Shown piece after piece: positions 1,031 to 3,941 of a stretch of 64,000 nt of DNA. Positions within the stretch are counted from its first letter, which is position 1, and every line of letters starts with the position of its first letter. The position numbers were made by a program, and so were the translations under genes. The stretch spans positions 88,294 through 152,293 of the forward strand of contig MHOA01000001.1 of the NCBI GenBank assembly GCA_001821765.1. Direction: 5' to 3'. A model generated the notes under the pieces. It did not search any database. It was given only the letters and a program-made list of their open reading frames with translations, and was not told where the DNA came from. This stretch comes from Candidatus Ryanbacteria bacterium RIFCSPLOWO2_12_FULL_44_26 (GTDB lineage Bacteria > Patescibacteriota > Minisyncoccia > Ryanbacterales > HO2-45-13).

Positions 1031-1207
1031 CACTTTAGAAAAGCGCAAGCCAGAGGAAGCCGCCTCGCGGAGTTTATCCTGACGAAGGAAGGACTCGGCG
1101 GCCATTTCGTATTGAATTTTGGGGGCAAAAACGAATTTGCTGGAGGACTCCATGAGAAGCATTGAACGAAGTGTTGCAGTAACTGGTTGAATGTGCTCCA
1201 CGCTGGC

Positions 1208-1426: not shown

Positions 1427-1903
1427 ATGAAGTACGCATTGAGTATCATCGGTCTGGTCTGTTTGGTTGCGGCGGTGGGCTGCAACAATCAAACGCCTGC
1501 CTCGGTTTCCAGCGGGGTCGTCGCGGTCGCTCAGAATGAGCGCTATCGCTTCAATGCGGAGATTGCTTCTCTCAACAAAGCACTGAATGAATTCCGCGAG
1601 TACCGTGAGTACCTTGAGAACGATCCCAGATTCCTTTTCTACCTGATGGACCGCGATCTGGACGCCGTCGAGCAGGGTCGAGAGGCGCGCGGTAGTTTCA
1701 GCGACTACTTCGTACCCAACGCGGCCAAGGCGCTTAAGGCCGGTGCCGCAAGGAAAGACATCGCGACTCGAATCGACCGGGTGATCGCTCTTGCGGAGAA
1801 GGAAATCTACTTGTCCAGTCTCGTGGCTCAACTCATGAAGGAAGGCGGGTCGGCGGCTGTCCGATCCTACGCTGACGAGTGGATTCGAGGAAGCCAAAAG
1901 TAA
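1427..1903 (+). CDS. putative lipoprotein, GC-rich (foreign-looking) gene
   Basis: Strong SD AAGGAGG (1415-1421) with 5-nt spacer; signal peptide with lipobox AAVGC; about 57% GC versus about 40% flanks; followed by terminator. Confidence 0.6.
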   Translation: MKYALSIIGLVCLVAAVGCNNQTPASVSSGVVAVAQNERYRFNAEIASLNKALNEFREYREYLENDPRFLFYLMDRDLDAVEQGREARGSFSDYFVPNAAKALKAGAARKDIATRIDRVIALAEKEIYLSSLVAQLMKEGGSAAVRSYADEWIRGSQK

Positions 1904-1936
1904 TCCCATCAATCTCTCCCGTCAAGTTCCAGCCCA

Positions 1937-1981
1937 AGCCCTTTGCAGTAGTAACATCGCTGTAAAGGGCTTCTTTTTTTC
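1937..1981 (+). terminator. rho-independent terminator
   Basis: GCCCTTTGCAG...CTGTAAAGGGC stem followed by T9. Confidence 0.6.
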
Positions 1982-2086
1982 AATAATTTAGAAGACAAGA
2001 ATTTGCCGCCAAAGCAGTAAATTTTTCAATCCAGTTTTCATTGAAAAATTTACTGAAATGATTTATTCTTAACTCAATAAAAACTT

Positions 2087-2340
2087 GTGGTTCGGCAGAC
2101 TCACCATCCTGAGTTTATCGAAGGGAAATTATCATCAGTGCGGCTCACTTCGACTTGGTTCGGCTTTACTCACCACAAGTCGCTCAGTACAGGCCGCCGC
2201 ATTTTCGGATTTCTAGGTGGGGTTTCCCTCGTCCTTCGACTGGCTCAGGACGAAAACGGCTTGCCCGCCCGTAGTCCCGCTTCCAGCGGGACGGAGGAGG
2301 GTTCGCACTATTTTAAGAATATTGGGCTAAGAATGTAACT
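2087..2340 (+). ncRNA. GC-rich structured non-coding segment (candidate ncRNA or 5' leader; class unassigned)
   Basis: About 55% GC with no convincing ORF (only a GTG-start R/G/S-rich 83-aa frame); internal 19-nt direct repeat GGTTCGGCnnnACTCACCA at 2089 and 2157; multiple complementary segments (TCCTGAG/CTCAGGA; GTCCCGCT-tcca-GCGGGAC). Confidence 0.3.
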
Positions 2341-2377
2341 TTTCTAAACAGTTTGCCATATCTAAAGTAAGGCATTT

Positions 2378-2902
2378 GTGATTCTCCAGAAAGATTTTTA
2401 TAATCGTGATACTACAGCAGTTGCGAAAGAACTGCTTGGAAAATATTTGGTGCGAAAAATAGGAAACCGCATACTCGCATATTCAATTATAGAAACGGAA
2501 GCGTATGTCGGACCAAACGATAAAGCATGTCATGCGTCCAGGGGTTTTACAAAACGAACCGCAGTCATGTTCGGCCCTCCGGGGATCGCCTACATATATC
2601 TTATCTACGGCATGTACTATTGTTTAAACATTGTAACTCGTGAATCAGGATATCCGGCGGCAGTGCTTATTCGCGCTCTTGATCATCCTGAAATGACGGG
2701 ACCCGGACGGCTCACAAAATTTCTCAACATAACCGGTTCCCATAATGGAGCGGACATGACAAAACGGTATACACTTTGGATTGAAAACAGGGGAGTGATT
2801 GTCAAAAAAAATGCTATTACGGCAACACCGCGGATCGGAGTGGGTTATGCCGGCGAGTGGAGTAAAAAACCGTTTCGGTATATAATAAAAAACAGTGATT
2901 GA
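2378..2902 (+). CDS. mpg: DNA-3-methyladenine glycosylase (Mpg/AAG family)
   Basis: GTG start; ETEAYVGPNDKACHASRG..MFGPPG..YIYLIYGMYYCLN family signature. Confidence 0.8.
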   Translation: MILQKDFYNRDTTAVAKELLGKYLVRKIGNRILAYSIIETEAYVGPNDKACHASRGFTKRTAVMFGPPGIAYIYLIYGMYYCLNIVTRESGYPAAVLIRALDHPEMTGPGRLTKFLNITGSHNGADMTKRYTLWIENRGVIVKKNAITATPRIGVGYAGEWSKKPFRYIIKNSD

Positions 2903-3941
2903 CACGTTATTATTAATCATTATGTTTGCTGGCGGCATTGCTTTTGGCGCCGTTGTTGTGTATGTTCTTACCAAAAAAGGGCAGGGCCTTTCACTTATTC
3001 AAAACCAAATAAATGAAATATCACGAACACTTGATATGAAACTCGGAGAGTCATCGAAACAAATGCACGAATCAATGCAAAATCAGTATCGTGAATCTAA
3101 AAATATCATCAGAGAAGTAACGGAGCGCCTCACGCGGCTGGATGAAACCAACAAACAAATTGTTGGTTTTGCAGATCAGTTGCAGTCTCTTCAGGATATT
3201 CTGCAAAATCCTAAACAGCGCGGAGTTCTTGGAGAATATTATCTTGAAACGGTGCTCAAAAATGTACTCCCCGTATCAGCTTACGCAATGCAGTATAAAA
3301 TCGGGAAGAGCGATGATGATAAAGATCTCATTGTTGACGCCGCTATATTCGTCGCTGATAAAATTATTCCAGTCGATTCAAAGTTCTCATTGGAAAATTA
3401 CAACCGTCTTGCCGTCGAGCGTAGTCCTGTAGAGAGAGCGCGCTTGGAGAAACTTTTTAAACAGGATTTGAAAAATCGCATTGATGAGACCGCCAAGTAT
3501 GTGCGCCCGCAGGACAGTACAATGGATTTTGCTTTGATGTTTATCCCGTCGGAAGCCATCTATTACGATTTGACGATAAGTCAGGTGGGAGCCGTGAGAG
3601 TAAATACGGCAGATCTTATCCAATACGGATTAAAAAAGCGCGTTCATATCGTTTCCCCAAACTCATTTTATGCGTTTTTACAGACTATTATGCAGGGACT
3701 TCGGCAGATGCAGATTGAGCAGTCAACAAAGGAAATTCTTAAGCGGGTACAGGAGCTCAGTAGACACATCACTGTTCATGATCAGTATATGTCAAAACTC
3801 GGCAGCGCCCTTGGTACCAGTGTGAGCCATTATAACAGCGCTTACAGGGAGCTTAAAAAGGTAGATAAAGATGTGCTTAAAATAACAGGATCTTCTCCGG
3901 ATGTTGAACCTCTTACTCTTGAAAAACCAGAAGAAGTTTGA
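2895..3941 (+). CDS. rmuC: DNA recombination protein RmuC
   Basis: N-terminal TM helix, coiled coil, C-terminal RmuC nuclease-like domain (IPVDSKFSLENY..ALMFIPSEAIYYD); start overlaps mpg stop. Confidence 0.8.
   Translation: MIDTLLLIIMFAGGIAFGAVVVYVLTKKGQGLSLIQNQINEISRTLDMKLGESSKQMHESMQNQYRESKNIIREVTERLTRLDETNKQIVGFADQLQSLQDILQNPKQRGVLGEYYLETVLKNVLPVSAYAMQYKIGKSDDDKDLIVDAAIFVADKIIPVDSKFSLENYNRLAVERSPVERARLEKLFKQDLKNRIDETAKYVRPQDSTMDFALMFIPSEAIYYDLTISQVGAVRVNTADLIQYGLKKRVHIVSPNSFYAFLQTIMQGLRQMQIEQSTKEILKRVQELSRHITVHDQYMSKLGSALGTSVSHYNSAYRELKKVDKDVLKITGSSPDVEPLTLEKPEEV

Follow-up and report, generated by a model that had tools for sequence, protein, structure and literature searches.

A GC-rich intergenic segment upstream of mpg in a Candidatus Ryanbacteria genome is probably a mosaic of degenerate REP-type palindromic repeats

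What is the GC-rich DNA that lies directly upstream of the mpg gene (2378-2902; PF02245, E 4.6e-56) at positions 2087-2340 of a 64,000-nucleotide stretch of the genome of Candidatus Ryanbacteria bacterium RIFCSPLOWO2_12_FULL_44_26 (contig MHOA01000001.1, positions 88,294 to 152,293; "the window" below means this whole stretch)? The genome is about 42% GC, positions 2101-2300 are 56% GC, and the flanks of this block are about 34-45% GC. An original prediction, made from the letters of the sequence, read the segment as structured and non-coding, possibly a stand-alone small RNA (sRNA) or the 5' leader of mpg, and pointed to a direct repeat, long-range complements, and a short identity to a nearby tRNA gene. 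We find that the repeats and complements are real and that they have a different origin. In our reading, to which we assign a probability of roughly 0.78, positions 2083-2306 are a mosaic of degenerate repeats of the repetitive extragenic palindromic (REP) type and are neither a regulatory RNA nor a protein gene.

The direct repeat is present as GGTTCGGC-aga-CTCACCA at 2089-2106 and GGTTCGGC-ttta-CTCACCA at 2157-2175, and the long-range complement is present as TCCTGAGTTTATCGAAGG (2107-2124) and CCTTCGACTGGCTCAGGA (2233-2250), which are complementary at 14 of 18 positions. Both are accounted for by one short palindromic unit that recurs in either orientation, as can be seen by reading each on the appropriate strand: The two direct repeat copies read GG-TGAG-N5/6-CGAA-CC on the minus strand, the arm that had been noted as TCCTGAG reads CC-TGAG-N5-CGAA-GG on the plus strand, and its complement at 2233-2250 reads CGTCC-TGAG-CCAGT-CGAA-GGACG on the minus strand. 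A single hairpin unit of about 29 nt is thereby present four times within the 173 nt at 2083-2255, three times on the minus strand and once on the plus strand, and each copy has the core TGAG-N5/6-CGAA closed by two short complementary arms. In the single-stranded core, U-A, G.A, A.G and G-C pairs continue the stem and leave a loop of 5-6 nt. Tandem sheared G.A pairs are a stable motif in RNA and DNA alike. The complementary strand of the core would bear C/T mismatches at the G.A positions, and such a tandem G.A, fixed on just one of the strands, would hint that the working form is single-stranded.

The units were scored with a covariance model, R1, that was built from 30 aligned units of other genomes (none from the window) and was run on both strands of the 64 kb with filters off. 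The four units take the first four ranks, and the next match in the window scores 11.6 bits. Unit d (2227-2255, minus strand; UUUCGUCC-UGAG-CCAGU-CGAA-GGACGAGG) is the best preserved and ranks first with 33.9 bits (E 8.5e-7); it has a 5-6 bp arm, the tandem G.A/A.G positions and a 5-nt loop, and its local hairpin is predicted at -11.3 kcal/mol. It is identical at 22 of 23 positions to IMG/VR contigs L154, L137 and L117, and Sphingomonad plasmids have close matches to it, the best of these with 96% identity over 25 nt. Unit a (2083-2111, minus strand; AUGG-UGAG-UCUGC-CGAA-CCA), which holds the first direct repeat copy, ranks second with 21.5 bits (E 0.002). Unit c (2151-2180, minus strand; CUUGUGG-UGAG-UAAAGC-CGAA-CCAAG), which holds the second copy, ranks third with 16.4 bits (E 0.046), and its local hairpin (2148-2184, minus strand; -11.8 kcal/mol) has a z of -3.9, with none of 200 shuffles folding as well. 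Unit b (2108-2124, plus strand; CC-UGAG-UUUAU-CGAA-GG) ranks fourth with 13.5 bits (E 0.27); its 15-mer CTGAGTTTATCGAAG is identical to a unit of an unrelated contig (L201). Units a and b abut to form an inverted doublet at 2083-2124, for which a plus-strand hairpin with 12 of 13 positions paired is possible (-11.1 kcal/mol, not better than shuffles). With lengths of 17-30 nt and local hairpins of -8 to -12 kcal/mol, units a to d are short imperfect palindromes of the kind (20-40 bp) that defines REPs; as for dispersed copies, the 64 kb window has the one cluster. A further weak unit-like stretch (1072-1098, plus strand; R1 9.9 bits, E 2.7, not significant) lies on the far side of a lipoprotein cassette in the GC-rich spacer after a tRNA-Lys gene, and has the 9-mer GAGTTTATC in common with unit b.

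Could such a cluster have arisen by chance? When the segment was shuffled 20,000 times with dinucleotides preserved, four TGAG-N5/6-CGAA motifs never arose and two or more arose 3 times; the gapped direct repeat arose in 52 of 5,000 shuffles (about 1%). The motifs and the direct repeat are not chance products. The four motifs lie within 2091-2247, and a looser pattern with a spacing of 4-7 nt occurs five more times in the rest of the 64 kb, counting both strands. Pairing is seen in 92.9% of the stem cells of the R1 alignment, with two-sided changes in 52 cells versus 18.8 in shuffles; among the arm pairs nearest the loop, C-G alternates with G-C and U-A with C-G. Of the loop motifs that the scan pattern had not selected in 1.8 Mb of unrelated loci, 19% have flanking stems of at least 4 bp versus 2-7% for controls of the same composition.

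The unit is also found well outside this genome. It lies in frame inside uvrB of a Parcubacteria metagenome-assembled genome (MAG; L048, 1985-2090 and 2287-2315), and an inverted doublet of about 80 nt lies in frame inside mpg of another Patescibacteria MAG (L081, 3380-3460), where it adds 26 residues that are not present in four homologues. A third in-frame unit or doublet is at 2931-2980 of L117, within an unidentified open reading frame (ORF) of 542 aa (1714-3342). These in-frame copies add 26-40 residues to their products, and DNA-repair genes make up two of the three hosts. When IMG/VR was scanned with an exact pattern, clear family members were recovered along with chance matches; the family members include doublets, an in-frame doublet, and tandem pairs upstream of genes in the 34% GC contig L201. 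A 160-nt mosaic cluster much like that of the window is at 4400-4570 of L117, and inverted doublets also occur in L139, L117, L218 and L219. BLAST of the segment against plasmids found unit d only, in Sphingobium, Novosphingobium and Comamonas replicons, where long, perfect inverted repeats in unannotated spacers have the copies as their arms; the canonical 33-mer is present at 99 places in 21 plasmid records, with up to 15 per record. The canonical family layout is (C/T)GTC-AT-CC/GG-TGAG-CTTGT-CGAA-GG/CC-AT, and 8 of the 30 seed units carry a GTCA(T/C/G) tag. The family is spread from bacteria of the Candidate Phyla Radiation (CPR) to Cyanobacteria, Proteobacteria and phage-like contigs. Comparison of the segment itself with a phage collection gave no match, and a 16-nt exact match to L048 was set aside as the end of an unrelated gene. 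Text searches with the DNA consensus and six peptides typical of read-through of the family found no relevant paper.

These findings bear directly on the idea of a structured RNA. As that idea would have it, a promoter near 2041-2069 drives an sRNA of its own or an mpg leader, and the 2107-2124/2233-2250 helix encloses a regulatory domain. A promoter-like site is indeed present at 2041-2069 (9 of 12 positions), the long-range helix is used in the minimum-energy fold, and there is no terminator between the segment and mpg. Moreover, Di Nocera, De Gregorio & Rocco (2013, BMC Genomics 14:522; PMC3733652), make the case that REPs lying between same-direction genes are in many instances transcribed and function as RNA; in the literature this role as RNA hairpins is a proposal and is not settled. 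Local hairpins can form, but a structure for the segment as a whole is not supported, as the fold of the complete segment is not significantly better than that of shuffles (z = -1.2 for the plus strand, -2.1 for the minus strand). Rfam 15 has no match at gathering thresholds within 2087-2340, in agreement with the failure of the original prediction to recognize a known RNA family, and when E is allowed to reach 10 the only match, to a snoRNA, scores 13.8 bits and is due to chance. A likeness of the CUGA...GAA core to hammerhead and K-turn motifs was also considered and dropped, because part of the hammerhead core (CUGANGA) is missing and a 3-nt bulge is lacking. A dispersed repeat, present in two inverted copies, accounts for both arms of the long helix. 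Homologous lipoprotein loci and the mpg loci of other bacteria do not have the segment, and at 80 mpg loci of other species (species representatives, with mpg at most 59% identical) there is no similar upstream DNA. In a large protein database mpg has 99% and 93% variants and then identity drops to 60%, and the variant contigs start at the edge of the segment. Since no relative falls between 93% and 60% in mpg identity and the long contigs show no differences, covariation analysis at the locus is impossible. Nor is the segment part of the lipoprotein cassette, because the conserved module of that cassette stops near 2018 and is followed elsewhere by unrelated spacers. We therefore consider a dedicated regulatory RNA at this site, whether sRNA or mpg leader, unlikely.

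The same repeats account for the only long reading frame. A GTG-initiated frame of 83 codons does run through the segment (2087-2338, plus strand) and two ENA assemblies annotate it as a gene. GC-rich DNA is expected to contain long open frames, however, and this one has no Shine-Dalgarno sequence before its start, has the composition of translated repeat DNA, matches only itself among 5.8 billion proteins and belongs to no Pfam family. Its peptides HHPEFIEG and LRLAQDE are the read-through of units b and d. The earlier suspicion that it is not a gene was well founded: the frame is an artefact of GC-rich repeat DNA, and the chance that it encodes a real small protein is negligible.

How do the units compare with repeats that have already been described? 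Di Nocera et al. sorted REPs into GTAG- and CGTC-tagged superfamilies. CGTC REPs have an unpaired CGTC, TGTC or CCTC tag, an 8-9 bp stem starting with AT, a 4-5 nt loop and a 3-nt tail; they are mostly inverted dimers, have no known transposase, and have copies inside genes, strikingly often DNA-repair genes (PMC3733652). The authors equate RPE-4 and RPE-6 of the Rickettsia palindromic elements (RPE) with them (PMC3733652). The canonical form of our family resembles these REPs in its (C/T)GTC tag, AT first stem pairs, stem of 8-9 positions and 5-nt loop that is often CTTGT; in being found mostly as inverted doublets and occasional clusters, intergenic between same-direction genes; and in its in-gene copies, notably in DNA-repair genes such as uvrB. 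The closest subgroup is CGTC-2, whose Sulfurovum peptide RHSELVSGS back-translates to CGTCATTCTGAACTTGTTTCAGGATC. The family differs from the CGTC REPs so described in its two fixed non-Watson-Crick stem positions (TGAG opposite CGAA) and in its CPR hosts here, which are outside the paper's survey; that survey would have discarded such units, because its pruning rule allows at most one mismatch. The paper's REP-encoded peptides match none of six peptides typical of read-through of the family (RQAH, LSLSK, QAQD and others).

The copies in the window depart further from the published CGTC REPs, since they have neither an unpaired tag nor a CCA tail. The CGTC of unit d pairs with GACG, and units a, b and c have CAGG, CACC and CTTG in place of the tag. 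Unit d has nine stem positions (seven Watson-Crick plus two G.A) and a 5-nt loop, with no AT start and no CCA tail, and units a and b keep the 5' AT only. The abutting a/b pair is an inverted doublet such as is usual for CGTC REPs. Like the BIMEs and REPINs of Enterobacteria and Pseudomonas, which are associated with RAYT transposases, the cluster is a REP mosaic of alternating orientation in one intergenic region, and its doublets can form a larger hairpin. Unlike those elements, its four units have no GTAG tag, its candidate partner is a GIY-YIG nuclease (below) and not an HUH Y1 transposase, and its family crosses phyla where BIMEs and REPINs are lineage-specific. The in-frame insertions that appear as extra peptide loops in mpg of L081 and uvrB of L048 recall the RPEs; unlike RPEs, the copies in the window are intergenic, and the unit is shorter than RPE-1.

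A second published comparison concerns nucleases. Chenal et al. (2025, Nat Commun 16:2388; PMC11893778) described the hairpins called NTS in Neisseria, or more generally SRM (Ssn-related motifs), that flank genes of the small GIY-YIG Ssn nucleases (single-domain; cd10448), and found that Ssn of Neisseria and three other homologues bind the oriented hairpin as single-stranded DNA (ssDNA) and cut beside it. Our family has the same features of oriented, GTCAT-type-tagged hairpins that are scattered in genomes and lie, inverted, on both sides of a small single-domain GIY-YIG gene. One such case is in a Sungiibacteriota MAG (L031, 2225-2556), where an Ssn-like GIY-YIG gene is enclosed by the inverted units GTCATCCTGAG...CGAAGGATC, which score 26.6 and 22.2 bits with R1. 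This nuclease is 64% identical to that of a Planktothrix plasmid gene (WP_083616022.1), which is likewise flanked by R1-type units, and 48% identical to an N. gonorrhoeae region flanked by NTS. In a comparison of plasmid records NZ_LR882964.1, NZ_CP089542.1, NZ_OZ000531.1, NZ_CP119142.1, NC_016623.1 and NZ_AP026896.1 (L224-L229), the hairpin subtype that flanks Ssn-like genes shifts with the nuclease clade: homologues from Neisseria, Azospirillum, Aeromonas and Shinella have NTS-type flanks (33-47 bits with R2, an NTS-type model) and no R1 matches, and a Spirosoma Ssn-like gene has hairpin flanks of a CCCGAGG type. Unlike with NTS, R2 scores no more than 15 bits on the L031 unit and finds nothing in the window. 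A GIY-YIG search of viral contigs found no relatives, and NCBIfam has no family for the L031 nuclease. The L031 gene has an apparent frameshift near codon 18, and the hairpin-nuclease-hairpin cassette, which resembles an insertion sequence, has a penicillin-binding-protein gene on one side and a mur ligase-like gene on the other.

From these comparisons a broader proposal can be framed, which we hold tentatively and think rather less probable than the repeat origin of the segment itself. The TGAG-N5-CGAA hairpin would be an undescribed SRM/CGTC REP subtype that co-varies with a distinct Ssn clade (Sungiibacteriota, Planktothrix), falls outside both published definitions and colonizes CPR uvrB and mpg in frame; and the cluster, together with the stretch at 1072-1098, would bracket a mobile lipoprotein cassette in a manner resembling the Neisseria NTS-gene-NTS arrangement that modulates recombination. 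As an object the locus itself is of an ordinary kind, and it is the subtype that appears to lie outside the published definitions.

A number of observations weigh against assigning the segment to a REP/SRM-type family. With respect to the published systems, the SRM pattern HGTCWYN(0-2)YYVSBRHN(0-5)WNVSBRGN(0-2)RNCYNB (PMC11893778) has no match on either strand of the window and none among the 30 seeds, while an NTS control was matched; the window units have no GTC-AT tag, which the literature calls crucial for Ssn recognition, and the CGTC of unit d is base-paired; tblastn finds no ssn or GIY-YIG gene in the 64 kb; and the Ssn association of the TGAG/CGAA subtype rests on two loci. The window differs from SRM loci in having no ssn gene, and any cleavage of the TGAG/CGAA subtype by an Ssn nuclease is putative. 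With respect to the statistics, only unit d scores strongly and unit b is marginal, the R1 E-values rest on a short calibration, and the stem covariation is partly circular because R1 seeds were chosen for stems of at least 3-4 bp. With respect to the locus, a REP family would be expected to have more than a single cluster in 64 kb, the unit does not account for about 100 nt of the segment (2181-2226 and 2256-2306), and transcription could enter the segment from the weak promoter-like site at 2041-2069.

What, then, is the part of the GC-rich block that the four units do not cover? The hairpin GTCCCGC-TTCCA-GCGGGAC listed in the original prediction is present at 2274-2296, and with the GTAG that precedes it (2271-2296) has a predicted energy of -19 kcal/mol in context (z about -2). 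It has the general layout only of a GTAG-tagged REP, is not found by R1 or R2, and has no close match in plasmids or phages; we considered it as a decayed NTS-type SRM and rejected this because R2 misses it. To its left, the 24 nt at 2251-2274 (plus strand) resemble the 5' end and upstream flank of the tRNA-Lys(ttt) gene, with 19 of 24 positions identical to 944-967, and they include the reported 10-nt identity to the tRNA 5' end (CCGCCCGTAG at 2265-2274). The score is reached by 4 of 1,000 shuffles and the exact 10-mer by 30 of 1,000, for a comparison that was chosen post hoc, and neither ARAGORN nor Rfam calls a tRNA at 2251-2340. This likeness may be an old recombination scar or chance. At the right edge of the block, the 10 nt at 2297-2306 (plus strand; GGGTTCGCAC) look, from their sequence, like the first half of another minus-orientation unit that has been cut at AT-rich native DNA, and two short, independently assembled contigs begin at this edge (2301 and 2307).

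Taken further, the likeness to tRNA-Lys could mean that the locus is the scar of site-specific integration at that gene, in which 944-967 and 2251-2274 would be att-like direct repeats that bound a 1.3 kb island with the lipoprotein cassette, and the GC-rich DNA would be part of the island or a decayed tRNA. The 19/24 direct repeat does take in the tRNA 5' end, the lipoprotein module has a high GC content and differing contexts in other Parcubacteria (below), and several independent assemblies break at 860, 1934, 2011, 2301 and 2307. There is also a possible parallel in contig L097 (1197-1533), where a 79-aa GIY-YIG gene immediately upstream of a tRNA gene (apparently tRNA-Glu, by eye) has a 12-nt direct repeat of the tRNA 5' end, CGGCCCTATCGT, on both sides, as though the cassette had entered that gene at its 5' end and restored it. 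The geometry in the window is atypical, however, with an intact tRNA at the left and a partial 5' copy downstream, and therefore the body of the tRNA would have to derive from the island. No integrase is present, no tRNA remnant follows 2274, and all contigs with this mpg are arranged alike, with no empty site among them; a scan of metagenome contigs for an empty site gave 0 matches and is uninformative, since an exact 30-mer of the window gave 0 as well and the collection thus lacks this genome. Integration at tRNA-Lys leaves the four repeat units unexplained and is compatible with a repeat mosaic; as the source of the GC-rich DNA we regard it as improbable.

If the segment is a repeat mosaic, its units would have reached this intergenic spot as DNA-level repeats and would since have decayed, as the 5' tag is gone in three of the four. 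Given the loss of that tag and the lack of an ssn gene in the 64 kb, the cluster is probably a decaying relic, and its present role would be at most that of passive hairpins in the DNA or in a transcript that reads through from the lipoprotein gene to mpg. The locus is in itself of little consequence: the annotation of a CPR genome loses one candidate sRNA or riboswitch and one spurious gene of 83 aa. More generally, the REP/SRM world extends into these small genomes, and since the published patterns miss a common hairpin subtype, counts of Ssn-associated repeats and of the spurious hypothetical proteins that they give rise to are probably underestimates. The pairing of hairpin subtype with nuclease clade, if true, would be a further specificity pair for the ssDNA-cutting Ssn nucleases, and the in-frame copies in uvrB and mpg extend an odd and unexplained link between such repeats and DNA-repair genes.

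The surroundings of the segment are as follows. Contig MHNS01000006.1 (GCA_001819895.1) matches the window, as do several groundwater assemblies made independently; the locus is also on a JGI metagenome contig (3300002105), and positions 860-2420 are identical (100%) in six long contigs. The adjacent genes and closest homologues indicate a Patescibacteria/Parcubacteria (CPR) genome. A membrane ORF (414-866) is followed by tRNA-Lys(ttt) (958-1031) and, directly after it, by the GC-rich spacer (1032-1207), which has a GCCGCC...GGCGGC inverted repeat at 1058-1101. The lipoprotein cassette (1208-2018) consists of a strong promoter (1208-1236, TTGACA-17-TACACT), a 5' untranslated region with a hairpin, the ORF (1427-1903) and a terminator-like hairpin (1936-1972). 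Its GC content is 58%, against about 42% for the genome, and its DNA is 70-80% identical in other Parcubacteria, with different neighbours each time; because it is conserved in such differing neighbourhoods it is probably horizontally mobile. Its 5' untranslated region contains a long imperfect hairpin at 1325-1410, with a 21-nt inverted repeat within a perfect 10-nt inverted repeat, that ends just upstream of the ribosome-binding site and is conserved with L091 and L093 only; no consensus structure was found over all homologues of the cassette. Between the lipoprotein terminator and the GC-rich segment is a perfect AT-rich hairpin (2015-2055; a 16-bp inverted repeat with a 9-nt loop), which overlaps the weak promoter-like site at 2041-2069. 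In mpg, the alignment of a variant strain (ENA scaffold_371971, L221) breaks at 2733-2771 of the window in a way that is consistent with a 37-nt deletion, and the called mpg product of that strain is 161 aa long and 93% identical.

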